IMG/VR virus record: IMGVR_UViG_2565956617_000009
DNA length: 23,227 nucleotides
Strand: one strand, 5' to 3'
Source of the DNA: a virus
Lineage: Duplodnaviria; Heunggongvirae; Uroviricota; Caudoviricetes
Numbering within the stretch: the first letter of the stretch is position 1; each line of letters opens with the position of its first letter. The notes below the pieces were generated by a model, which saw only the letters and a list, made by a program, of their open reading frames with translations, was not told the DNA's origin and searched no databases. Below, piece by piece: positions 2,158 through 19,994 of this stretch. A program made the position numbers and the translations under genes.

Positions 2158-2505
2158 TCAACTCACAGGGATGGTTAACGAAAGTGGCTGGCCGGTGTCG
2201 TTGTGCTGACCGGTTAACGTGACCGTCATTCGCCCGTCAAAACTGCGCGCCGTGGTGACGGATGACAGGGTTACGCGGGGTTCCCATTTCAGCACCGCCA
2301 TGTAACAGGCGACCTTAATCTGCAACTCAAGCGCGGGGGTCTGCGGCTGGTCAATCATTGATGCCAGCAACGAGCCGTAATCACGACGCATCACCCGTGA
2401 GCCGACCGGTGTGCGCAGGATATCGCCGATACTCTGGCTGATATGCTCAAGGTCAGTGACAGTCAGGCCATCACTGCGATTCATCCCTAGATAACGCGCT
2501 GTCAT
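2158..2505 (-). CDS. W: Baseplate wedge protein gpW
   Basis: 115-aa ORF, same length as P2 gpW, between V and J. Confidence 0.9.
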   Translation of the reverse strand: MTARYLGMNRSDGLTVTDLEHISQSIGDILRTPVGSRVMRRDYGSLLASMIDQPQTPALELQIKVACYMAVLKWEPRVTLSSVTTARSFDGRMTVTLTGQHNDTGQPLSLTIPVS

Positions 2506-3137
2506 AGAGGACTCCCGGTTTTGCCGCCGCTGTCGCCGGGGTGTTTATGGGTATGCAGTACCTTCCCGTTTGATGAAAGTTCACCGCCGGTGTGTTCAAT
2601 GTTGCCGCGCATCGTCCCGCCCTTCTGCACTTCCAGCGTGCCGGTAATCAGCTTGTTGGTGCAGACCACCTCCGGTGTGTCCAGGGTGACGCGGGTTGAT
2701 GCTTTCACCATGACCACCGGCACCGTGGCAGTAACAGAATCAGAAGCCGTCACGCTGGCCGTTTTAATTCCGCTTACCGTGAGTGCACTGGTTTCAGGTT
2801 CATACTCAATCACCGCCCCGTCAGGGAAACGGATATGCAGGGCATCCGCCGACACCGACGGCGCGGGGTTATCGCCGGAATAAATCCCCGGCAGAACGAA
2901 CGCAGTGTCGAGTTCACCGCCCACGGCCAGAATCAGCACCTGTTCCCCCACGGAAGGTGCCCACCATGTGCGCGAACGCCCGGCGCGATGGGTCAGCCAC
3001 TGAAGCCAGTCGGTGCACATGCCGCCGGTCTGCACACGGCAGCGACCGGCGTTAAGGTCGGTTTCGACGACAAGGCCGGTACGAATCATGTTGCGCAGTG
3101 CGCGCGCGAGTTCCTGAATATTTGCGAGAGTGTTCAT
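2502..3137 (-). CDS. V: Baseplate spike/hub protein gpV
   Basis: ORF 2502..3173; start trimmed to the internal ATG (rc of 3135..3137, MNTLANIQ...) to give 211 aa, the P2 gpV length. Overlaps W by 4 nt. Confidence 0.88.
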   Translation of the reverse strand: MNTLANIQELARALRNMIRTGLVVETDLNAGRCRVQTGGMCTDWLQWLTHRAGRSRTWWAPSVGEQVLILAVGGELDTAFVLPGIYSGDNPAPSVSADALHIRFPDGAVIEYEPETSALTVSGIKTASVTASDSVTATVPVVMVKASTRVTLDTPEVVCTNKLITGTLEVQKGGTMRGNIEHTGGELSSNGKVLHTHKHPGDSGGKTGSPL

Positions 3138-3214
3138 GACGGGAAGGATGCCGCCGGACGATACCAGCAGCAATCATGGAGGACTCTGTCAGCCGTGACA
3201 CAACATAATAAATA

Positions 3215-3970
3215 TTAGTTGTAGCACTTCTCTATAATCTTCATACACTCCTCATGAGCTAAATCATGGCTGTCAAATTCTTTATTAAAAAAGAAGAAAA
3301 ACGCCTTCTTAACCTGAGGCATTTCAATAAAAATAAATTCATCAACCTTATGAAAGAAATGAAAACTCTTGTTTGATGTTTCAAAAACCATCAAAGAATT
3401 ATGTTTTTTATCCTTCCATTTCGACATCAGATTGCGTCGCGATTTTCTTATAATCCTGAAGACATCCTCCGGTGTCGTATCGACATTCCCCCAAAACATT
3501 GCAACCGGGAAGTTTGCAAGGAAAGGGATATAATCCCCCCCTTTATACCTGAGAAAGCGGGTCCGTAAATCCATTAATTGCAACTTAAAGCCCATGTATT
3601 GCAACCACCATATGATGCAATCATATTCATAATCTGTTAACTCATCGCCCCTCTTTTCCGTAAGAAATTTCTTCAGGTTATACTCAAACGCTCCCAGCAA
3701 ATCAGAATTGCACACTCTGCATGCTGGTACAGTGGCTTTGATGTAATGAGTTGACTGATTATTCTTTTTATTAATTAAAAGTTTTTCAGCATTTGACTCA
3801 AAGGCCCACTGAGGAATAATGTGCTCACGAGTAATATCGTCAGAACTCCCGCATAACACACATACATCAGCATTATGGTCAGCAATAATACAATCCATAA
3901 CTTTCTTTTGAGAATGCTTTACTCTTTTTCTCAAAATGGAAAATTTTTTATCCACAAACACCCATCTCAT
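3215..3970 (-). CDS. AT-rich accessory ORF (251 aa) with an HNH-type endonuclease motif, in the S-V slot (P2 orf30 position)
   Basis: Translation contains CVLCG...EHIIPQW...N...CRVCN, a CxxC...(D/E)H...N...CxxC arrangement typical of HNH nucleases. The DNA is visibly AT-rich compared with the flanking tail genes. Start ATG overlaps the S stop codon; same strand as the late operon. Confidence 0.6.
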   Translation of the reverse strand: MRWVFVDKKFSILRKRVKHSQKKVMDCIIADHNADVCVLCGSSDDITREHIIPQWAFESNAEKLLINKKNNQSTHYIKATVPACRVCNSDLLGAFEYNLKKFLTEKRGDELTDYEYDCIIWWLQYMGFKLQLMDLRTRFLRYKGGDYIPFLANFPVAMFWGNVDTTPEDVFRIIRKSRRNLMSKWKDKKHNSLMVFETSNKSFHFFHKVDEFIFIEMPQVKKAFFFFFNKEFDSHDLAHEECMKIIEKCYN

Positions 3971-4425
3971 ATAACATCTTTCGATAGAATCACTAATAAC
4001 TCCTTTTCTATCAATTGTATAGATTCCTTGTCAAAACCTAATAACTCACGAACAGGATATTCCACCACAGCACTATTACGCCCCGGCTTATCCCTAAGCC
4101 CTAATTGATGTACTCTCGCAATTCGTTGTACTCCGCTGGCAAACTCCACCACAGCCGCACTCTCGCTACCTGTTGCTTTCATAAATCGGTTTGTGCGTAA
4201 TTTCGCAAACATTTCCCGCTTTATCCGGCCTTTCTTATTTCGCACTGGCTGGTTTTTTCTCGGTATATACGGCGTACCATCCGGGGCTTTTTGTAATTTA
4301 ATTCGCTGCTGCTGGCGCTGGCGCAGTTTCTTCGCAATATCTACCGCCAGTCGCCGACGCCCTGACGGTGACAGCGATTCAATAAGTCCGGTCAGCCGGT
4401 CTTCAAAACGCTTAAACTCATTCAT
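3967..4425 (-). CDS. S: Tail completion protein gpS
   Basis: 152-aa ORF, close to P2 gpS (about 150 aa), immediately downstream of R. Confidence 0.85.
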   Translation of the reverse strand: MNEFKRFEDRLTGLIESLSPSGRRRLAVDIAKKLRQRQQQRIKLQKAPDGTPYIPRKNQPVRNKKGRIKREMFAKLRTNRFMKATGSESAAVVEFASGVQRIARVHQLGLRDKPGRNSAVVEYPVRELLGFDKESIQLIEKELLVILSKDVI

Positions 4426-4885
4426 CCCACTTGCTCACCAGTTCGCCATTGATATAAAGCTCCACCGGGCGGGTGACCGGCTCCGGCGGCGGAGGTTCCG
4501 GGATATTCTTCACATGCAGTGCGCCGTCCACCTCACTGACCAGCGTGCGCTCGGTCAGCATCAGGCTGATGCTGATATCAAAGCTGCTGTCATTGTTGAT
4601 GTCCGCATAAAACGTGAAGCCCTTTTTCTGGCCTTCGTCGGTGGTCATGATGTCGGGCTGATTTTCCCGCAGCCACGCCAGCACCGGCACGATGAGCAGG
4701 TCAAAATCACCGGTAAAGTCGGTCACAATCACATTGAGCGTGTAACGCTTTTCGAATGACAGCGACGTCGCCAGTGTGGAGGCAATACTCCCGTTATCCA
4801 CGAATATCCGCAGCATCTCGGGGCTGGTTTTCAGCACCGTGACGGCATCAGTCAGTGCCCTGCGCAGGCTGTCGGGTTTGAGCAT
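4418..4885 (-). CDS. R: Tail completion protein gpR
   Basis: 155-aa ORF, same length as P2 gpR, following the lysis cassette. Confidence 0.9.
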   Translation of the reverse strand: MLKPDSLRRALTDAVTVLKTSPEMLRIFVDNGSIASTLATSLSFEKRYTLNVIVTDFTGDFDLLIVPVLAWLRENQPDIMTTDEGQKKGFTFYADINNDSSFDISISLMLTERTLVSEVDGALHVKNIPEPPPPEPVTRPVELYINGELVSKWDE

Positions 4886-5138
4886 CGTTTTCGTCCTGAC
4901 AGTGTTTAATCATTTTTACCTGGCTGGCACAGCGTGCCAGCGCGTTCTCAAGCTGCCGGATATCGGCACTTAAATCGCCGTTCGTCTCCGGGTCACTGCC
5001 CGGCATCGGGCAAAGACTCACTTTCGGGCAGGCGTTGGCGACAATCACTGGCGTCAGTGCAGGCGGGGCGCTGGTGCAACCGGCGCACAGCATCAGGCAG
5101 GTCAGCACCGTACCAGCGGCGAAAATCTTCGTTTTCAT
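4848..5138 (-). CDS. lysC: LysC, outer-membrane lipoprotein spanin (Rz1-like), embedded out of frame in lysB
   Basis: Internal ATG at rc 5136..5138 gives MKTKIFAAGTVLTCLMLCAGC..., a signal peptide with lipobox LCAGC, and a 96-aa product. Lies in a different frame inside the lysB 3' half and runs into the R start, as in P2. Confidence 0.75.
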   Translation of the reverse strand: MKTKIFAAGTVLTCLMLCAGCTSAPPALTPVIVANACPKVSLCPMPGSDPETNGDLSADIRQLENALARCASQVKMIKHCQDENDAQTRQPAQGTD

Positions 5139-5418
5139 TGAGTAATCTCGTGATGGTTTTCTCGCGCTGTGCTTCACGCTTCGCGGCGTTCTCCAGTTCC
5201 TGACGCAGAGCCACCTGCGCCAGCTCGTTTTTGTCTGCCCTGGTGAGCGCAACATGAAGCTGATTTTTCAGCATGGTGATAGTCGTCTGCTGTTCACTGG
5301 CGACGTTGTTCGCCCTGTCCAGCGAGGCGCGCAGGCTGGCATTTTTATGTTTCACCAGAAACAGACCGGCCACCGCCAGTGATAACAACACAACCAGCAC
5401 AGTCATCAGCTTTGACAT
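4993..5418 (-). CDS. lysB: LysB, inner-membrane spanin (Rz-like)
   Basis: 141-aa ORF with an N-terminal hydrophobic segment followed by a charged, coiled-coil-like region; same length and position as P2 LysB. Confidence 0.8.
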   Translation of the reverse strand: MSKLMTVLVVLLSLAVAGLFLVKHKNASLRASLDRANNVASEQQTTITMLKNQLHVALTRADKNELAQVALRQELENAAKREAQREKTITRLLNENEDFRRWYGADLPDAVRRLHQRPACTDASDCRQRLPESESLPDAGQ

Positions 5419-5831
5419 GGTTCCCGCCCCTCAAGACGCTGACGGCAGGCCGTACATATCAGCCGGAAGAACAGCGACGCCACGAGATAAATCAGCGCGG
5501 TAAAAATCCACCCGGCAGCGACCAGCGAGATAAACGTCGCCACCATCACCACCAGAGCCGCTGCCCGCCTGCGCCACGGCACCGGCTGCAAAAACAGCGA
5601 CGTGACAATCTTCACGGCCAGCGATTCCGGTGGCAGCTCCCGCCCGTAGCGTTCCAGCACATACTCCGTGGCATACACGCCGACACCACCGGCAACCACA
5701 CAAATAACCGTCGCCAGAATCGCCCAGGTGGCGACAAAACTGACGGCCACGCTCTGCGGATAAATCAGGGACAGTGCCAGCATCAGCGCCAGCGACACGT
5801 TCAGCATCAGTGAAAGGGATAATTTCTTCAT
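5406..5831 (-). CDS. lysA: LysA, membrane protein of the lysis cassette
   Basis: 141-aa ORF with several hydrophobic segments, between K and lysB as in P2. Confidence 0.8.
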   Translation of the reverse strand: MKKLSLSLMLNVSLALMLALSLIYPQSVAVSFVATWAILATVICVVAGGVGVYATEYVLERYGRELPPESLAVKIVTSLFLQPVPWRRRAAALVVMVATFISLVAAGWIFTALIYLVASLFFRLICTACRQRLEGREPCQS

Positions 5832-5845
5832 GGTGTTTACTCCGT

Positions 5846-6343
5846 TTAAGCCGGTACGCCGCCAGCGGTACGCCAGACGGTGACCAGTTTTTCCAGTGAA
5901 TGCTCACGCTGACCGTAACCGGCACCCGGCAGGGACGCCCAGATATTGCGACAGCGTGAAATGGCGCGCTCAATGCGTCCCGCCCGGATGTCATCCAGTG
6001 CACCGCGTTCGCGGATCAACTGAATGGCGAGCCTGTCCTGTGACAACGGACTGAAATCCGGCAGGGCAAGCTGTTTGCGGTAATGCGGCCAGAACAGGTA
6101 AAGCTGCTGATAGCGACCGGAGGCCGTGGATTTTTCACCGCGACGGTTAAACACCTTCGCCGGTCGGCCATGTGCGAACGGGTGGTCACTGTAGTCGGTG
6201 AAAATTTCCGGCTTCCCGTCCAGTCCGGTGACTATCACGTCATAGCCCCGGTTTTTCGTCAGCGGATGGTTTGCCGTCCCTTCGGACACGGCCAGCATGT
6301 CGAGAAAGGCGGCGATATTCTGATGCGTGTTAATTACCGGCAT
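5846..6343 (-). CDS. K: Endolysin gpK
   Basis: 165-aa ORF, same length as P2 gpK, immediately downstream of holin Y. Confidence 0.9.
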   Translation of the reverse strand: MPVINTHQNIAAFLDMLAVSEGTANHPLTKNRGYDVIVTGLDGKPEIFTDYSDHPFAHGRPAKVFNRRGEKSTASGRYQQLYLFWPHYRKQLALPDFSPLSQDRLAIQLIRERGALDDIRAGRIERAISRCRNIWASLPGAGYGQREHSLEKLVTVWRTAGGVPA

Positions 6344-6624
6344 TACGGTTTCCCCCTGCCCTTAAAGCGGCGCTGAATGGCAATCTCAATCACCTGATAA
6401 CCGGCGATACCCAGCATGGAGCCGATGCCGCACACCGCAGGCAGTGACAGGTCAGGAAACTGCACCAGAACAACACCGGCAACCATCGAGACAAAACCAC
6501 CGAGCAACATGCGCCCGATAAACAGACGCGGGGTGATGGGTTCACCACCGGCAAGCACCTTGCCGACAACAATCAGCACCCCAATCATGAAAAGCGACAG
6601 GACGCTTTTTTCTTCTGCTGTCAT
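6343..6624 (-). CDS. Y: Holin gpY
   Basis: 93-aa ORF with hydrophobic transmembrane stretches, same length as P2 gpY. Confidence 0.85.
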   Translation of the reverse strand: MTAEEKSVLSLFMIGVLIVVGKVLAGGEPITPRLFIGRMLLGGFVSMVAGVVLVQFPDLSLPAVCGIGSMLGIAGYQVIEIAIQRRFKGRGKP

Positions 6625-6627
6625 GCG

Positions 6628-6831
6628 TTACTCCCAAAGATTGACAGTTTCAGCCACGGGCGCGGTCTGAACGTCGGGCAGCTCGACGGCGGTGCCGTGC
6701 GGCAGCACCGCGCCCAGTTCAGCCAGTCCCGGATTTGCGGCGAGCACGGCTTCGACCACGCCCTCAGTGCGCCCGTAATACCGGACACAAATGGCGTCGA
6801 GCGTGTCGCCCTGTAGCGCAAAGGTCTTCAT
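6628..6831 (-). CDS. X: Tail protein gpX
   Basis: ORF trimmed to the ATG at rc 6829..6831 (MKTFALQGDTLDAICVRYYG...) giving 67 aa, the P2 gpX length. Start shares a TGATG overlap with the L stop. Confidence 0.8.
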   Translation of the reverse strand: MKTFALQGDTLDAICVRYYGRTEGVVEAVLAANPGLAELGAVLPHGTAVELPDVQTAPVAETVNLWE

Positions 6832-7340
6832 CAGATTTGACTCACGATGCAGCGCGGCTTGCCCTGGATGCGCGCCACCGCCCAGCGCATATCCCGCCAC
6901 AGCTCATCAATGGTGCTGTCAATGCTGTCAGCCTTCTTGTCGCCTTTCGCACTGGCATCCACGCCGCGATAACGCTCATAAAGCGACGCGGTCGCCATCG
7001 CACACACGGCGCGCTCGTAGTAAAAAACTTTGATGCTTTCACCGTCGATGTCGTCCGCAGGGACGTCCGCCAGACGCGTAAAACCGGCGGCAATTTTCTG
7101 TTCGCGGTACTCGTACAGCTCTGCATTCGTCTCCGCCATGCCTGACTTGATGGCCTCACGCAGACGGGCGGGGGCGACGGTCTGCTCAAGGCGCATACGT
7201 TCCCGGACGCGCTTCGGGGCGATATCGGGAAAAAAGAACGTGTTTTTAATCACCGGCTCGTCGCCTGCCGGTTGCGGGATGACCACCGTACCCTCACCGG
7301 ATACAGGAGCCTCCTTTCGCGGAATAATCAGCGTCATCAT
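6831..7340 (-). CDS. L: Head completion/stabilisation protein gpL
   Basis: ORF trimmed to the double-Met start (rc 7338..7340, MMTLIIPRKEAP...) giving 169 aa, the P2 gpL length. Confidence 0.85.
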   Translation of the reverse strand: MMTLIIPRKEAPVSGEGTVVIPQPAGDEPVIKNTFFFPDIAPKRVRERMRLEQTVAPARLREAIKSGMAETNAELYEYREQKIAAGFTRLADVPADDIDGESIKVFYYERAVCAMATASLYERYRGVDASAKGDKKADSIDSTIDELWRDMRWAVARIQGKPRCIVSQI

Positions 7341-7439
7341 GACTACCTCTGAAAAGTCGGGCGGTGGACGCCGGTGCAGTGTCAGGTGATTCACCGTCAC
7401 TGACCGGCGTGCCGCCCTGGCGCGGGGCGCATTCGGTTG

Positions 7440-13180: not shown

Positions 13181-13322
13181 ACCCCCCGTCATCACACCCT
13201 CACACGCTCACCACCGCACAAAACAGCCCGCAGACACACCAACGCCCCGGCAGGCCGACTAAATGCCATCACGACGCACTGAGACGCTGAAAAAATAAAA
13301 TCAGCACCACCGCCAGCGCGCA

Positions 13323-13341
13323 GTGCTTTCCCCGCCTCGCC
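13323..13341. other. cos site: 19-nt cohesive-end sequence of P2-type phages
   Basis: GTGCTTTCCCCGCCTCGCC on the plus strand is the reverse complement of GGCGAGGCGGGGAAAGCAC, which I recall as the P2 cohesive end. It lies downstream of Q where cos is expected. Confidence 0.8.
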
Positions 13342-13454
13342 CGCCCGCTTTATGGGTCGTTTTTAATGCAGTTGCATTGATAGCATAAGGGCGCGCCATT
13401 ACTGGCACACCTTTTCATCATCCTAGATAAAATTCTAATGCAATAGCAGGCAAC

Positions 13455-15467
13455 TTAATGCACTTGTTGCATTGTCTCTTGAGCTTTCTCACCCTCTGGA
13501 ATTTTTATCGTATTACTATTAATTAAAGCATGAATTCGCTTATCGTTAGGCGAACGTTCAACTAGATGATCTAAGAATTCTTGCCATTGACGTTTAGCTT
13601 CAGCAAGCAGATCACCCCAAGTAAGAGTTTCAAGTCCATCCTCTTTAAGCTTTCTAACCTTTTTTAAAAATGCAGGATTTTTCTTGGCTATTTTATCAGC
13701 AACCAAATAACCAGTAGCAGTATTAAATCTTGATCCCGTAGAGCTTTCAAGATGGCCACGAAATGTGTCTACATATGTCTCAAACCTAACTAAATGATCT
13801 AAATCAATCATTAACCCTGGACGCATAAACTCAAGGATTAGCAAATGCTCACCACTCGCTAAAACCAAATCAACTCGTCCATTAAAATCTTCATCCTTAT
13901 CAAGGCCTGAATCTTTAGCTGCTTCAGCAGCCAAATCTCCGACATTTCGCTCCTTAGCGAAGGTTTCCCACTTTGGTGATATTAACCATGGGTTATTCGC
14001 AATATAATCTCGCACTGCATTTTCTAATTCACGATTTTTTATTCGTGACTCAAGTCCTATTATTGTGTCCAGCTTTGCCTTTACAGATTCAGCTGTATGC
14101 AATGCTTGTATTGTATTAGCCTCGATAAGCATAGATAGCAATTTATCGCCATCCATATCGGGTACTTCTGCAACTTGCCTGATTAACTCCTTTAACCGAC
14201 CTCCTTCCCATGCAGTAAGAACAGAATTGGCTAACTCTTTGAATTGATTTGCATTTATTTGATTAATGCTAGCCAACTTCTTAAGGGCTGTCATAATGGT
14301 TTTTTTCTCGCTTGGAGCGAGTTTTTCAATTCTTGAACTAAAGTCAGAAACTTTGTCTTCTATCAGTTTCGTTTTTTCTTCAGCCCTCCGGTCTTTCCAT
14401 ATTTTTAATAAATTGCGAATACGAGCCTTCCCCCACTCTTCAAGAGTGGCTAAATGATGATGCCCCCAATTCAACCGTTGTCGCTCAGTTGAAATAACAT
14501 CCTCATCAAATTCATCAAGGTAGTCAGCTAATACTGCACCCGTCATATATTCTGGCCCATTCTGGCTAGGTAACCCTCCTGCCAAATTAAACATAAATGG
14601 TCTTTGGGCTAATTTCCCATGAGAAAATATTGAAATACCTTGTAATTCCTCTTCCTTTATAGTTTCTTTTAAGAAGAAAACTCTCCATTTTATTTGATGG
14701 TCACCGACCATTTCTGTTCCCCATCCATCTTTATCAATCTCAGTCAATCCTTTTGGTTTTTCATCTTGTTTGTAGTCCTTAGGAAAGGACATTTCTGACT
14801 TGCTAAGAAAGTCTTCTGTAGGGATTAACTTCCCATCAATGCTCACATAAAAATCTGCTGCGGCAGCATTTACAGAGAAACGGCGAGCCATAGATGTTGC
14901 AAAAAAATCAGCTGAAATCAGGCGCTGAATTTTCAAACAAGTTAACTTAATTGTTGTACCATGTGCTTTTTTTAATTCATTGTTAGGTTCAACTCTCTCA
15001 ATCACATCGATGGTAAGTTTCGATGTATTGATATAATCATCATTTGATGAATCACGAATTTTATCAATATCTAGTACAAATGATGTTTTCTCGCCAGTAT
15101 CCTTACTAATAGTTGTTACTGTTATAACTGATGCAATACCAAAACCAGCAAATTTTCCAATTCCTTTTCTTCCCATCAGTGGACGTTTTAAATCACGGGA
15201 AAGCGTTTTTGCATTATTTTTACGCTTATCATACCCCACTGTCAGAAACTTATTCTGACATTCCTCTAGGGTCATTCCGATACCATTATCTTGAATCGTA
15301 ATTGAGAAATCGTCATGCGTAGGAAGAGTAATTTTCACCTCAGTTGCATCAGCATCCCAGGAGTTAGAAACCATTTCAGCAATAGCAGCTGTTGGACTTT
15401 GATACATTTGTATGCCCAAATGATCAATTATTCTTCCGTGGAAACTTAAAAATAAAGATTTTTCCAT
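13455..15467 (-). CDS. GHKL-superfamily (Bergerat-fold, MORC/MutL/Hsp90-like HATPase) ATPase, 670 aa, with an uncharacterised C-terminal region; candidate effector of a methyltransferase-linked system
   Basis: Motifs read from the translation: N-box EMVSNSWDA (nt 15351..15377), G1 box DNGIGM (15273..15290), G2 box GRKGIGKFAGFG (15138..15173), then GTTIKL. ATG at rc 15465..15467 lies 4 nt after the methyltransferase stop, with AGGA about 9 nt upstream. Strongly AT-rich. Confidence 0.85.
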   Translation of the reverse strand: MEKSLFLSFHGRIIDHLGIQMYQSPTAAIAEMVSNSWDADATEVKITLPTHDDFSITIQDNGIGMTLEECQNKFLTVGYDKRKNNAKTLSRDLKRPLMGRKGIGKFAGFGIASVITVTTISKDTGEKTSFVLDIDKIRDSSNDDYINTSKLTIDVIERVEPNNELKKAHGTTIKLTCLKIQRLISADFFATSMARRFSVNAAAADFYVSIDGKLIPTEDFLSKSEMSFPKDYKQDEKPKGLTEIDKDGWGTEMVGDHQIKWRVFFLKETIKEEELQGISIFSHGKLAQRPFMFNLAGGLPSQNGPEYMTGAVLADYLDEFDEDVISTERQRLNWGHHHLATLEEWGKARIRNLLKIWKDRRAEEKTKLIEDKVSDFSSRIEKLAPSEKKTIMTALKKLASINQINANQFKELANSVLTAWEGGRLKELIRQVAEVPDMDGDKLLSMLIEANTIQALHTAESVKAKLDTIIGLESRIKNRELENAVRDYIANNPWLISPKWETFAKERNVGDLAAEAAKDSGLDKDEDFNGRVDLVLASGEHLLILEFMRPGLMIDLDHLVRFETYVDTFRGHLESSTGSRFNTATGYLVADKIAKKNPAFLKKVRKLKEDGLETLTWGDLLAEAKRQWQEFLDHLVERSPNDKRIHALINSNTIKIPEGEKAQETMQQVH

Positions 15468-15471
15468 TTGC

Positions 15472-16500
15472 TTATCCTAATTCAATAAGATGTTTTTTTA
15501 TTACCTCTGCATGACGCTTGATAAATTCTGGAGGTAACGCATTACCAATCATAAGAGCTGCTCTATCTTTACCATACTTGATTGGAAAGTAATAATCCTT
15601 CGGAAAAGTTTGCAATAGAGCGGCCTCCCGCAAAGTGATCGCTCTATCTTGTACAGGATGAAGGAATCGTCCTTTAGATGGATTAGTGCAACCACTTGTT
15701 ATTGTTGGGGATACATCATCCCATTTCATGCGCCCATAAACATCCCTAAATCCATTTGGATATTTTTTATGGCACGGTAGCCAGTATTCATATGGTAAGT
15801 CAGAACGACTACCACCATCTTTTGGCACTAGCTTTATTATATTCATGACTTTTTCAGAGCGATTTTCTTTTATATTATGCAAAAAGTCATCACTATATTG
15901 AGGTAATGGTAAATCTCCAATTACATCCTTAACAGTTACTTTTTTGCTATTTTTTTTCGCTCTTGGTAAATATCCTAATCTTGAAGCCAACATTACCATA
16001 CGCCGCCGTCTCTGTGGCACTCCATAGTTAGAAGCATCTTCAATCGCAACAGAGGTTGAATCAATGAAATACCCTAACTGTTTCAATTCATCGCAAAAAA
16101 TTTTCATGCGATAATCTTTAGCTAATGCGGGCACATTTTCCAACATTACTACTTTAGGAAGAAAGTATTTAACAAATTCCAAAAACGAAAATATTAAATC
16201 ATTCCGTTCATCGGTAACCGAAGAATATTTATTCCTCGTTCTTAAGCTTGAAAAACCCTGACATGGAGGACATCCTGCAAGCAAGTCAAGTTGCCCTTGC
16301 TGGAGACCAAGTTCAATCATGATTTTTTTGGGGGACAACTCCCTTATGTCTCCCGTATACAATGATACATCAGGATGATTCTGCATATAGGTTTCAGAAA
16401 CAATAGGCTCCTTTTCGACTGCTGATATAACGTCAAAGCCAGCCATCTTAAGACCAACTGTCAGGCCACCTGCGCCGCAGAAGAGATCTATCGCTTTCAT
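15472..16500 (-). CDS. DNA (cytosine-5)-methyltransferase, 342 aa
   Basis: Canonical C5-MTase motifs: motif I FCGAGG (16465..16482), catalytic PCQ in GCPPCQGFS (Cys codon 16261..16263), motif VI ENV (16132..16140), motif VIII QRRRR, C-terminal GNALPP. AAGGA lies just upstream of the ATG at rc 16498..16500. AT-rich. Confidence 0.9.
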   Translation of the reverse strand: MKAIDLFCGAGGLTVGLKMAGFDVISAVEKEPIVSETYMQNHPDVSLYTGDIRELSPKKIMIELGLQQGQLDLLAGCPPCQGFSSLRTRNKYSSVTDERNDLIFSFLEFVKYFLPKVVMLENVPALAKDYRMKIFCDELKQLGYFIDSTSVAIEDASNYGVPQRRRRMVMLASRLGYLPRAKKNSKKVTVKDVIGDLPLPQYSDDFLHNIKENRSEKVMNIIKLVPKDGGSRSDLPYEYWLPCHKKYPNGFRDVYGRMKWDDVSPTITSGCTNPSKGRFLHPVQDRAITLREAALLQTFPKDYYFPIKYGKDRAALMIGNALPPEFIKRHAEVIKKHLIELG

Positions 16501-16551
16501 AAAATCCTTAACAAACCTAAACCAATATATAACATTGAAAAATATTGGATG

Positions 16552-16580
16552 AGTATAAATGACTCTCCATGTCGCAGCAA
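16552..16580 (-). promoter_or_regulatory. Candidate sigma70-type promoter for the methyltransferase-ATPase operon
   Basis: On the minus strand TTGCTG (-35, plus coords 16575..16580), a 17-nt spacer, then TATACT (-10, 16552..16557), about 50 nt upstream of the methyltransferase ATG in an AT-rich leader. Confidence 0.3.
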
Positions 16581-16767
16581 AAGTATATTTGTGAAAGACA
16601 GCTCAGATAGGAGCAGAGCACCAAACATATCGGATTGTCGATGCATGAACGAGGAATCACCATTTCTCTAATACATACTCTAACTCTGAAGAGTAAGTTC
16701 TTGTGTATGTTCATTTCACTTCCAGAGCCAATGCTACTCAACCTCATCAGCCCTGAAAGCAAAAGAT

Positions 16768-16992
16768 TCACGGCTGACGGGATTCTCGACCATCTGCGGA
16801 TGACGATGCAACTCTATACTGACCGATATCGTTAAGCCGCCCGTAATTATCCCGGACTATTTCGGCACACCCGACCAGCTCGTCAGGCGTCAGATTTTCG
16901 TTGACCATAATCTGCTGTAGACGGTGAACAATAGCCATCAGCTTGATATTTTTAGTGTTATGTTGCGGTATCTCGCCTGGTATTCTGTGCAT
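16768..16992 (-). CDS. Small hypothetical protein (74 aa), translationally coupled to the upstream ORF
   Basis: ATG at rc 16990..16992 overlaps the stop of the preceding ORF (TAATG). No recognisable motif. Confidence 0.4.
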   Translation of the reverse strand: MHRIPGEIPQHNTKNIKLMAIVHRLQQIMVNENLTPDELVGCAEIVRDNYGRLNDIGQYRVASSSADGRESRQP

Positions 16993-17444
16993 TATCCAAG
17001 CCACCCGTTTTGCTTTGCACGCTCAATCTGTTCATCTGAATAGCTCCACATCCCATCCGCAGCAACCACTGCCCCGCCAGACAGCCCTGTCACTGACTCA
17101 TACATAACAGCAAGACCGAGCTGATGCATAATTTCATGATTAATTCTGAATACCAGACCACGCTCACCAAGCTCTTTCCAGTTCACAATCTCATATGCGC
17201 CTGTATTAAGCAGCTCAATACTTAGCAAGACATAATCTTCCAGCCAGTCTGACAGGTCAGTAACATCTGTTATCCGGGCTTCAACCTTTCGCCCCGTATA
17301 CACACCCTGCACCCATTCATGCAAAATCAACGTGTCCCCGCGCTCATAATTACGGTCATTTTTCCGAAACTCTGCACGTTTCTTTCCTTCCAGCACAAGG
17401 TCGAAATATTTTGCGTGCAGCTTTACCTCGTGAATTTTTGCCAT
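16992..17444 (-). CDS. ASCH/DUF3850-like small protein downstream of A (P2 orf91 position), with a C-terminal extension
   Basis: Start MAKIHEVKLHAKYFDLVLEGKKRAEFRKNDRNYERGDTLILHEW resembles the ASCH-like/DUF3850 pattern as I recall it. ATG at rc 17442..17444, 19 nt upstream of the A stop. About 150 aa, longer than I would expect for this family. Confidence 0.55.
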   Translation of the reverse strand: MAKIHEVKLHAKYFDLVLEGKKRAEFRKNDRNYERGDTLILHEWVQGVYTGRKVEARITDVTDLSDWLEDYVLLSIELLNTGAYEIVNWKELGERGLVFRINHEIMHQLGLAVMYESVTGLSGGAVVAADGMWSYSDEQIERAKQNGWLG

Positions 17445-19729
17445 GATGTCCACTCCATTACTGTTGAGAATCCCGGCCACTCATCAGTGACCGGATACGT
17501 GAATTTTTTCCCGTCATAATTTACGGTCGCGCCACGCGCCAGCGCCTCAAGTTCCCATCGCTGAGGCCAGATGCCGTTCTGAGCAAGGTCAACACGGATA
17601 CGGGTAATTTGCATACGCTCCGACCGGGTCAGCCTGGCCGATGGCGCTATTTCATTCGGTTTTAACGGGCTTCCGTTTCTTTGCTGACGGTTTGGTGTTC
17701 TCAGGCCGTGTTTTAATGCGCCCCTGAGCGCCCTCACGACCTCCGGGTCATTCCATTCGATAACACCGTCATCAACCAGATTAAGCACGGCTGCGGCGTG
17801 CTCAGAAGGTGTGGGAGCCGGTAACGAAGTATCACCACCGGTGAGCTTTCCACAGTTATTGACAGGACTCCGAGGCGCGGCGATGCCGCTTTTTAAAGTC
17901 AAAGGCTCAACGACCGGCACTTTCGGCACAATGCGCCAGTCCGTCGTTCTGGTGATATGAATATGACGCGCGCCGAGATGCGGCGCGTAAATGCCGACCA
18001 CTCTCTCGACTTCTTCCTCGTACTCGTTAACGTCATCCGACGGGCTACGGGCAACCCTGACAGTCTGACAATCGCGCGGAACATTTGCCCCACCCTGCGC
18101 GCTGATATACAACGCAAAATCACCACTGTCTGCGGCGGCGCGTGCAGCCTCGACGCGCTCGTCAAACTCATCAGCAATGCTGACGCCGCGCGGCAATTTG
18201 CGTAGTTCACGGTAAGCCCCCATTGTCGGCAGACCAACCGTTTTAAATTGCGGGATGCGCCACGTTGACGCCCATGCAGTAACAGCCGCGGCAGTATCTT
18301 TCAGAGGTCTGCCGGTATCGTTATCGAGCTGACCATCCAGTGCATAGCCGTCGATGTTTTTTGAGATGTATTTCGCGATATACCCCGCAGCACCGCCCCG
18401 GTTAAGGTGTTTTGCCTGAAAACGGTTTCGCGCGGCTCCTCTTTCGTCGCCATCCTCTTTGAGCGCATAGCGACGCATGATTTCGATAATCTGGTTACGC
18501 TGGCGCGGATTACAAAAAAGCATCATATGCCAGTGCGGCGTTCCGTCGTGGTGTGGCTCGACGACACGCAAACCGTAGACCTGTAAATCATTATCCTTGA
18601 ATGCCGTGCGCATCAGGCTCCAGATACGGCAGAGATAACGCTGCGCATCCTTTGGATTAAATGCCTCATCGTTCCAGCCGTGATTTAGCTGGACGGTTTT
18701 ACTTTCGCCTTTTCTGACCTGACGTGTCGGGTGATACTTTGACGGCGCGGTCAGCGTGATAAACATCCCCACATCACCCTCTGCTGCGGCGTAACGCTCA
18801 ATACCGGCAATGGTGTTCATCAGCTCCATCCGGCGAATTTCAGGATTAGAAATACTGCCCATCACCTTACTGATAAGGTCGATGCGCTCGCCGGTTTCCC
18901 TGTTTTCAAGGTCACACGATTTAAGAAATTCCAGATTTGCCTGGCGGCGCGCACGCACATCACGAATGGCATGTTTACTGGCATAAGGAGAACGGTCTTT
19001 ATTGACCTCCCCGACAGCTATCAGTAACGCCTCATGCCAGCGCATACGCTGGCCTTTAAGCTGATGAGTCCACCACTCATCGTTAAACAGGCGGGCAATG
19101 GCAGAATATGCCTGCCTCGTGGTCATCTGTCCTTTACGGTATTTTTTCCAGTAGAGCGGGGAAATATTGAAAGCACGTGCAGCGCCAGCAACATGACCAT
19201 AGAGGTGAGCCTGCGCCTCATCCGTAAACAGCGATTCTTTTTCGCCATGTGCATCAACCCAGGCATCGCAGAGTTCCTCATACATCATGAAAAGCTGCGA
19301 TGAGATACGGGCAGCAAACTTTTTCAGCTCCTTGTCATTCATTCCCGGCAGGCGCGCATAGTGGTCACGCTCTGCCAGAAACAGTAACGACGCGTCGGTG
19401 TTCATTTCATGGCGCTGATTCACACGCTCAATGCGCGGCCATAAACGACGCTGAAAAGTGGATGTGAGGAAATAAAACCCGTGCACCGGGCTTTTATTGC
19501 GCCGGATGTAGTCATAGCGTGAAGTAAACAGCGAGCGCAAAAAGTAAGGCAGGCGGTTAATCGTGGATAAAACACCTTGCACCTGACGCATCTCGTCACG
19601 TGTAAGGGGTCTTTCGCGCCCGACAGCCTCGCGTGGCGCGTTCCATGCATAAGCACCGGTAAACGCCTTACCGGTGCCTGCAGCAAATGCTGACGGAGGG
19701 ACAAAACGCCCGGAGGCTTTAACGACCAT
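17423..19729 (-). CDS. A: Replication initiator gpA (rolling-circle HUH endonuclease)
   Basis: Near-identical over long stretches to P2 gpA as I recall it. HUH motif in GTPHWHMMLF and paired-tyrosine motif GAAGYIAKYISK. Start set to the ATG at rc 19727..19729 (MVVKASGRF...), about 768 aa; the ORF track extends to 19771. Confidence 0.9.
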   Translation of the reverse strand: MVVKASGRFVPPSAFAAGTGKAFTGAYAWNAPREAVGRERPLTRDEMRQVQGVLSTINRLPYFLRSLFTSRYDYIRRNKSPVHGFYFLTSTFQRRLWPRIERVNQRHEMNTDASLLFLAERDHYARLPGMNDKELKKFAARISSQLFMMYEELCDAWVDAHGEKESLFTDEAQAHLYGHVAGAARAFNISPLYWKKYRKGQMTTRQAYSAIARLFNDEWWTHQLKGQRMRWHEALLIAVGEVNKDRSPYASKHAIRDVRARRQANLEFLKSCDLENRETGERIDLISKVMGSISNPEIRRMELMNTIAGIERYAAAEGDVGMFITLTAPSKYHPTRQVRKGESKTVQLNHGWNDEAFNPKDAQRYLCRIWSLMRTAFKDNDLQVYGLRVVEPHHDGTPHWHMMLFCNPRQRNQIIEIMRRYALKEDGDERGAARNRFQAKHLNRGGAAGYIAKYISKNIDGYALDGQLDNDTGRPLKDTAAAVTAWASTWRIPQFKTVGLPTMGAYRELRKLPRGVSIADEFDERVEAARAAADSGDFALYISAQGGANVPRDCQTVRVARSPSDDVNEYEEEVERVVGIYAPHLGARHIHITRTTDWRIVPKVPVVEPLTLKSGIAAPRSPVNNCGKLTGGDTSLPAPTPSEHAAAVLNLVDDGVIEWNDPEVVRALRGALKHGLRTPNRQQRNGSPLKPNEIAPSARLTRSERMQITRIRVDLAQNGIWPQRWELEALARGATVNYDGKKFTYPVTDEWPGFSTVMEWTSWQKFTR

Positions 19730-19994
19730 ATGAGCCAAAAGCCTCTGAACAACGCTTGCTGAGTCGCTCAACCTGCGCGTTTAAATCAGCAAAAGACTTT
19801 GCGCTTCCGGTCAGAATATCGTGATGCATCAGGCCGGAAACGAGCTGGTTTAATTTCGGGTAATAACCAACCACCGACAGCCATTCCTGACCGGCGTTTT
19901 TACCGCTTTCCGCTCTCTTTTTCTCGTGGAGAATAAACTGAAAGCTGTCACTGGTAACGACATAACGTTCGCCAATTTCAATACAAATACTCAT
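19719..19994 (-). CDS. Early-operon small protein (P2 orf83 position)
   Basis: 91-aa ORF immediately upstream of A, overlapping its start, in the cox-B-A operon. Confidence 0.6.
   Translation of the reverse strand: MSICIEIGERYVVTSDSFQFILHEKKRAESGKNAGQEWLSVVGYYPKLNQLVSGLMHHDILTGSAKSFADLNAQVERLSKRCSEAFGSYGR

Follow-up and report, generated by a model that had tools for sequence, protein, structure and literature searches.

R.HgiDII is a characterised type IIP restriction enzyme; a study of 2008 recognised a GHKL domain at its N-terminus, the C-terminus having no assignment as yet (PMC2441816). Systems of the HgiDII and BbrUII type, which act at GTCGAC, consist of a C5-cytosine methyltransferase and an endonuclease of approximately 650-670 amino acids with an N-terminal GHKL domain. 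A related class, paraMORC3, combines GHKL, S5 and restriction-endonuclease-fold domains, is often encoded beside a cytosine methylase, and is patchily distributed and mobile (Iyer, Abhiman & Aravind 2008, PMC2292703). VcSduA, a Shedu protein of the GHKL type (type I-D), works alone without a methyltransferase and needs the lysine of its E-x-K motif (PMC12137116). Here we describe a C5-cytosine methyltransferase gene and the adjoining GHKL-nuclease gene in a 23,227-nucleotide stretch of a P2-like Escherichia coli prophage (IMG/VR record IMGVR_UViG_2565956617_000009; the whole stretch is hereafter the window). We consider it likely that the two genes form a restriction-modification (R-M) cassette like those of HgiDII and BbrUII, in which the methyltransferase is the modification half.

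The methyltransferase is encoded on the minus strand by an open reading frame (ORF) of 342 codons that runs from ATG to TAA over positions 15472..16500 without frameshifts or internal stops. A previous annotation made from the DNA letters (the sequence-only reading) had the coordinates and the gene call right and left the strand unstated. The predicted protein matched Pfam PF00145 (DNA_methylase) over profile positions 1-324 of 324 (E 1e-58; 199.7 bits against a cutoff of 22), and an ORF with such a match is not attributable to chance. It also matched TIGR00675 (dcm) at 151 bits, above the cutoff of 100.65, and the PADLOC model MTase_II (2.8e-82). An identical RefSeq protein, WP_023156285.1, is annotated as 'DNA cytosine methyltransferase'. 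Translation of the exact coordinates located motifs I, IV, VI, VIII, IX and X:

15472..16500, minus strand: C5-cytosine DNA methyltransferase, 342 amino acids, WP_023156285.1 (Pfam, TIGR00675, PADLOC and RefSeq)
16465..16488, minus strand: motif I, DLFCGAGG, S-adenosylmethionine binding (translation; columns invariant in the homologue alignment)
16249..16275, minus strand: motif IV, GCPPCQGFS, with catalytic Cys80 (translation; P79, C80 and Q81 invariant in the alignment)
16132..16140, minus strand: motif VI, ENV (translation; invariant in the alignment)
16000..16014, minus strand: motif VIII, QRRRR (translation)
15646..15975, minus strand: variable or target-recognition region, residues 176-285 (translation and alignment identities)
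15601..15645, minus strand: motif IX, RAITLREAALLQTFP (translation)
15529..15546, minus strand: motif X, GNALPP (translation)

As all motifs are present and the Pfam profile is covered from end to end, the methyltransferase is complete and probably active. The claims of the sequence-only reading that the catalytic motifs are intact and that the enzyme is likely to function are therefore upheld.

The methyltransferase gene is the first of two co-oriented genes. Its TAA codon (15472-15474) is separated by 4 nucleotides from the ATG codon of the partner gene at 15467, in keeping with the earlier placement of the methyltransferase at the head of an operon, immediately ahead of its partner within a single transcription unit. 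The partner gene and the domains and residues of its product are as follows:

13455..15467, minus strand: 670-amino-acid GHKL ATPase fused to a PD-(D/E)xK nuclease, WP_023156284.1, putative restriction endonuclease (profile matches)
14955..15395, minus strand: GHKL ATP-binding domain, residues 25-171, with E31/N35, D60-x-G-x-G64 and G99-RKGIGKFAGFG110 (profile match and translation)
13518..14060, minus strand: C-terminal PD-(D/E)xK nuclease-fold domain, residues 470-650
14022-14024, minus strand: nuclease-domain residue E482
13869-13877, minus strand: nuclease-domain residues R531-V-D533
13821-13832, minus strand: nuclease-domain residues E546-F-M548-R549
13785-13796, minus strand: nuclease-domain residues H558 to R561

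The partner matched Pfam HATPase_c_3 (4e-25), its GHKL ATP-binding residues were invariant in 37 homologues, and its full-length model resembles the ATPase modules of Hsp90/TRAP1 and MORC2/3. The succession of a GHKL domain, an S5-like middle and a C-terminal restriction-endonuclease fold is that of paraMORC3, with which the protein also shares a cytosine-methylase neighbour; it differs from paraMORC3 in its incomplete E-D-ExK signature, in which E, D and E are present and K is replaced by M. Alignment to the NCBIfam family NF050001 ('BbrUII/HgiDII family restriction enzyme') extended over the full length of the protein (residues 13-637). The partner also matched two PADLOC type II endonuclease models, REase_II at 3e-53, and phrog_6203 at 707 bits. 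The sequence-only reading, which had called this protein an ATPase, was correct as to the N-terminus and wrong in treating it as merely an ATPase, since a nuclease is fused to it. This fusion, together with the full-length homology to BbrUII/HgiDII, is what points to the pair as a probable R-M cassette.

The NF050001 score of the partner was 329 bits against a cutoff of 550, whereas the positive controls from PhiR44_1 and Halobaculum scored 751 and 801 bits, respectively. By these scores the partner is not a member of the BbrUII/HgiDII equivalog, and it appears to represent a sister clade of these type II restriction enzymes. A second departure from HgiDII and BbrUII lies in the nuclease site, where E-F-M-R and the pair H558/R561 replace E-x-K. 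The partner reads LEFMRP where above-cutoff members have IEMKRP or IDLKRP, which puts M548 at the position of the catalytic lysine. A search of 1.84 billion representative proteins returned 536 relatives at E ≤ 1e-30, and the nuclease motif was aligned across the full-length representatives. Those at least approximately 36% identical to the partner carried E-[F/L]-[M/V/T]-[R/K]-P followed on the next helix by an invariant D-x-D-H-x-x-R, whereas those at or below approximately 35% identity, the above-cutoff members included, had the canonical E-x-K-R-P without the H/R pair. Residues E482, R531, D533, E546, H558 and R561 were invariant in the 37 homologues, which come from many phyla. The PD-(D/E)xK fold as such is supported; of the catalytic site, E482, D533 and E546 are retained, and Met548 takes the place of the canonical lysine. 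Because the substitution is clade-wide and comes with new invariant residues, loss of the lysine would seem to reflect rearrangement of the active site and not decay. It is possible, if rather doubtful, that the active site has truly moved and that the cassette stands for an uncharacterised mechanistic subclass of ATP-dependent nucleases gated by 5-methylcytosine (5mC), with a new recognition sequence other than GTCGAC and a mode of cleavage that is perhaps not classical type IIP.

The association of the two genes was surveyed at 80 loci from other species that encode members of the nuclease clade 39-57% identical to the partner, an orthologous methyltransferase being defined by at least 45% identity to that of the window. 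An orthologous methyltransferase was directly adjacent to the nuclease gene at 33 of the 80 loci and a different C5-methyltransferase at a further 19; at 15 loci a C5-methyltransferase lay more than 300 bp away and still inside the 5-kb flank, and at 13 none was present within 5 kb. When the two proteins of each of the 33 orthologous pairs were compared with those of the window, their identities co-varied (Pearson r 0.81, Spearman p 1e-7). Such co-variation is the expectation for inheritance as a unit and supports a restriction-modification relationship. More distant relatives in Halobaculum (archaea), Campylobacter, Pseudomonas and PhiR44_1 likewise adjoin a Dcm-type gene. The cassette differs from VcSduA in precisely this respect, having a methyltransferase gene 4 nucleotides upstream of the nuclease gene and co-inherited with it.

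Gene order was less constant. Methyltransferase preceded nuclease in 20 of the 33 orthologous pairs, the reverse order on the same strand was found in 11, and the genes were convergent in 2, an arrangement shared by PhiR44_1 and by a Pseudomonas plasmid. The proposal that the methyltransferase is placed first because modification must be established before a toxic partner is made is thus not sustained as a general requirement; the order and tight spacing seen here are compatible with early, or at least stoichiometric, synthesis of the methyltransferase. Separately, at loci L011, L018, L021, L025, L034, L037-L039, L042, L046, L049, L054, L056, L080, L082 and L083 the nucleases were 44-51% identical to the partner, and the adjacent methyltransferases were only 25-41% identical to that of the window. 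Judged from these identities, members of the nuclease clade have evidently exchanged one methyltransferase partner for another, and one may ask what sets the specificity of the clade.

Comparison with related prophages defined the limits of the cassette and its position in the phage genome:

13383..16737, no strand assigned: variable cargo cassette of 3,355 bp, comprising the methyltransferase gene, the GHKL-nuclease gene and a 237-nucleotide leader (comparison with cassette-less prophages)
13323..13341, minus strand: P2-type cos sequence, GGCGAGGCGGGGAAAGCAC, in conserved backbone directly downstream of the cassette (comparison with Yersinia phage P37)

The segment 13100-17500 was 100% identical to the chromosomes of Ec40743 and PM22 and 99.6% identical to the left end of Yersinia phage P37 (Peduovirus). 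Homology to the cassette-less E. coli P2-like prophages of Yu5 and GN04171 ended at 13376-13382 and restarted at 16738. The cassette has a G+C content of 0.378 as compared with 0.532 for the remainder of the window, and was present in 8 of 5,426 complete E. coli genomes, of which 2,193 possess the flanking sequence. The same strand carries, upstream of the cassette, gene A of P2 replication together with a DUF3850/ASCH gene and a small hypothetical gene. On the downstream side, the cos sequence is followed by the portal gene Q on the opposite strand. The linear genome of phage P37 starts at window position 13323, and the string at 13323-13341 is the cos sequence of P2. The cassette therefore lies next to cos, between genes A and Q, with conserved flanks around variable content, as in the gpA–gpQ hotspot. 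These conserved flanks, the rarity of the cassette relative to them and its low G+C content identify it as cargo gained by horizontal transfer and lodged in the cos-proximal hotspot of a P2-like prophage.

The same cassette occupied the same slot in a 186-like Klebsiella prophage (methyltransferase 92% identical), in a P2-like prophage of Serratia fonticola (80% identical) and in Yersinia phage P37, and its overall spread takes in prophages of E. coli, Klebsiella, Serratia and Cronobacter in addition to the Yersinia phage. The gpA–gpQ slot, which holds old and tin in phage P2, has been presented as a reservoir of anti-phage systems (Rousset et al. 2022, PMC9122126), and Table S5A of that work lists the present arrangement by the accessions WP_023156287, WP_023156285, WP_023156284 and WP_023156286. 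The portions of its text and supplement available to us gave no indication that the arrangement had been cloned or tested. The sequence-only reading was silent on the hotspot, so that it missed the status of the methyltransferase as already catalogued cargo of a known defence slot. EcoO109I, from the hotspot of a P4 satellite (Kita et al. 1999, as cited in PMC9122126), is similarly a type II R-M system that includes a C5-methyltransferase and sits next to cos as cargo of an element of the P2/P4 family. According to Table S1 of the same source it has a helix-turn-helix (HTH) controller and a classical small endonuclease, whereas the present cassette has no controller and a large ATPase-nuclease. 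The P2-like Escherichia phage PhiR44_1 (PV340563, locus L003) carries genes annotated 'Dcm' and 'ParaMORC3' in convergent orientation at 3968-7016, also in the gpA–gpQ slot, and its endonuclease, the 751-bit control given above, is a true member of the BbrUII/HgiDII family. With the cassette of the window, this pair indicates that two branches of the superfamily occupy the same hotspot.

The following scheme may be proposed for the cassette. If the enzyme follows the reaction course established for its family, Cys80 in the PCQ motif would attack C6 of a flipped-out target cytosine with the assistance of ENV and QRRRR, and a short, probably palindromic site would be read by the part of the protein that lies between motifs VIII and IX. 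The partner, with its GHKL ATPase, Hsp90/MORC-like middle and nuclease, would dimerise through the ATPase heads, clamp DNA on binding ATP and cut DNA that lacks the 5mC mark of the cassette. The methyltransferase would meanwhile mark the host chromosome, the prophage and the DNA of progeny phages, such that a lysogen could restrict phage or plasmid DNA that arrives unmethylated and exclude competitors. Methylation of the host chromosome had been suggested in the sequence-only reading; the prophage context fits this suggestion, which is conditional on expression of the gene.

Candidate expression signals were found at both ends of the operon and at the junction of the two genes:

16552..16580, minus strand: candidate cassette promoter, TTGCTG-17 nucleotides-TATACT, with a weak -35 element, approximately 50 nucleotides before the ATG (read from the sequence)
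16505..16509, minus strand: Shine-Dalgarno sequence AAGGA of the methyltransferase gene (read from the sequence)
15475..15478, minus strand: Shine-Dalgarno sequence AGGA of the nuclease gene, within the last codons of the methyltransferase gene (read from the sequence)
13290..13326, minus strand: terminator-like hairpin and U-run in conserved backbone, the likely 3' end of the operon transcript (consensus match only)

The proposed promoter is based on a weak σ70-like hexamer pair together with its conservation: approximately 120 nucleotides around it are conserved in the Klebsiella cassette, and TATGCT is retained in that of Serratia. Expression in a lysogen may accordingly be driven from within the cassette, and the location of the partner's Shine-Dalgarno sequence inside the 3' end of the methyltransferase gene makes translational coupling possible. 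The sole ORF of the leader (16517..16771, 84 amino acids, GTG start) had no family match and no RefSeq annotation.

Several of these results weigh against a conventional R-M system. A promoter scan of the minus strand upstream of the methyltransferase gene found no site at threshold, and the total number of sites it returned was not above that in shuffled sequence. No controller gene of the HTH type was present in the cassette, leader included. The partner falls below the NF050001 cutoff and is approximately 26% identical to the above-cutoff members from PhiR44_1 and Halobaculum. Its clade has E-F-M-R where both the BbrUII/HgiDII members and the Shedu-type relatives have E-x-K; mutation of the lysine abolishes defence in the related VcSduA (PMC12137116), and with this residue absent the nuclease activity of the partner is not assured. 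No characterised member of its nuclease clade was found in the literature. The assumption of a conventional toxic endonuclease must be tempered on this account, and also because the 13 loci with no C5-methyltransferase within 5 kb indicate that proteins of this type are not always lethal when unlinked from one. An Eco57I-type N6-methyltransferase was found at one of these loci (L064), the nuclease genes at the others lying beside unrelated defence genes. The word 'toxic' in the sequence-only reading was an assumption, weakened by a clade that lacks the canonical lysine and includes homologues, 39-48% identical, with no C5-methyltransferase within 5 kb.

These points bear on three alternatives. 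The two genes might be independent, the methyltransferase being a phage orphan that protects phage DNA or acts epigenetically and the GHKL-nuclease a stand-alone, ATPase-regulated protein akin to Shedu (paraMORC3, type I-D), for which the loci without a linked methyltransferase offer a precedent. We regard this as unlikely in view of the 4-nucleotide spacing and internal Shine-Dalgarno sequence, the adjacency of an orthologous methyltransferase at 33 of 80 loci across many phyla with r of 0.81, and the travel of the pair as a unit among prophages of the P2 family. Furthermore, the nearest named family consists of true restriction enzymes, PADLOC reported REase_II with no match to a Shedu model, and the Pfam profile SduA_C (PF14082) gave 13.6 bits against a cutoff of 27 (E 0.078). 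A nuclease that is catalytically dead, leaving an epigenetic, regulatory or addiction-free methylation module, would account for M548 at the position of the catalytic lysine. It is nevertheless highly improbable: a dead site would not keep E482, D533, E546, R531, H558 and R561 invariant in 37 homologues, and a substitution shared by the whole clade and joined by new invariant residues looks like rearrangement.

The remaining alternative retains gating by methylation and departs from the classical type IIP mechanism. The partner would act as a MORC-like clamp or loop and cleave either at a distance from a defined sequence or without regard to one, with 5mC serving as a mark of self only. Replacement of the E-x-K lysine by Met, Val or Thr throughout the clade and the gain of the invariant D-x-D-H-x-x-R speak for such a mechanism, as do the strictly conserved GHKL motifs, which imply that ATP turnover matters. 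Nucleases 45-51% identical are paired with methyltransferases only 25-41% identical, which is hard to square with a fixed specificity, and DNA looping has been proposed for proteins of this kind (Iyer et al., PMC2292703). On the other hand, HgiDII and BbrUII are treated as ordinary iso- or neoschizomers of SalI acting at GTCGAC, the orthologous methyltransferases share a well-conserved recognition region (59%), as fits one defined site, and no helicase or translocase is present. On balance we judge this mechanism improbable, and favour an R-M cassette in which the methyltransferase protects against its own partner nuclease.

With regard to the target of that cassette, the sequence-only reading held that the specificity of the methyltransferase is not assignable by eye, and comparison with relatives gave no assignment either. 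Database matches of the methyltransferase carried generic names only. It was 36-38% identical to the methyltransferases paired with the above-cutoff endonucleases of PhiR44_1 and Halobaculum, and 41% identical to that of Campylobacter, whose endonuclease scored 336 bits, below the cutoff. Over residues 200-285 of the recognition region, mean identity among orthologues of the same clade was 59%, as against 51% for the N-terminal catalytic half; such a difference suggests that the orthologous group shares a single target. The recognition region was only 36-47% identical to those of the PhiR44_1, Halobaculum and Campylobacter enzymes, and 36-42% identical to those paired with above-cutoff members. 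The overall layout of the region is that of HgiDII-type and BbrUII-type methyltransferases, and this common framework makes GTCGAC, or a related xTCGAx, at most a tentative candidate target. Transfer of GTCGAC from named relatives was rejected, as the 36-38% identity to the methyltransferases that served as proxies for M.HgiDII and M.BbrUII is too low. KcmA of K. pneumoniae NTUH-K2044, a 5mC methyltransferase with the new motif MTCGAK (PMC9684165), was also considered as the same gene and rejected; judged by its cloning primers, it starts MKKVSCV and ends LVATK and is a different protein. GTCGAC occurs 3 times in the window and not at all in the cassette, counts that are uninformative in 23 kb of recently acquired DNA.

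A phage-borne type II R-M system in the P2 hotspot is expected biology, and RefSeq, a deposited phage genome and a published table of the hotspot already contained these exact proteins. Descriptions of the architecture go back to 2008, and identification of the methyltransferase is a correct and ordinary annotation. What may surprise the specialist is the nuclease site, which in a large clade lacks the lysine and bears the H/R pair; this site belongs to the neighbouring gene and not to the methyltransferase. Lysogens carrying the cassette would gain an additional 5mC motif and a restriction barrier, with consequences for transformation, for host range in phage therapy and for the interpretation of methylomes. 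A host that acquires a new pattern of 5mC could, in addition, become a target of type IV systems such as McrBC, and this might limit establishment of the prophage.

Other features of the window were noted in passing. The backbone genes just upstream of the cargo, both on the minus strand, encode a DUF3850/ASCH and DUF7415 protein (16992-17480) and a hypothetical protein of 74 amino acids assigned to phrog_11386 (16768-16992); they flank the hotspot in most P2-like prophages. A minus-strand ORF of 251 amino acids at 3215-3970 lies in a second patch of low G+C content (approximately 0.40) between gpS (3967-4425) and gpV (2502-3173). It matched phrog_10503 (function unknown) over its full length and had no match in Pfam or PADLOC; its position is that of the orf30 cargo slot of P2. 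A further variable position among near-identical phages is found between the gpA and TraR-like genes, where Yersinia phage P37 (MT239398, locus L002) has a PAPS-reductase-family gene at 6410-7417 and the window has a DUF5405 gene at 19719-19994.

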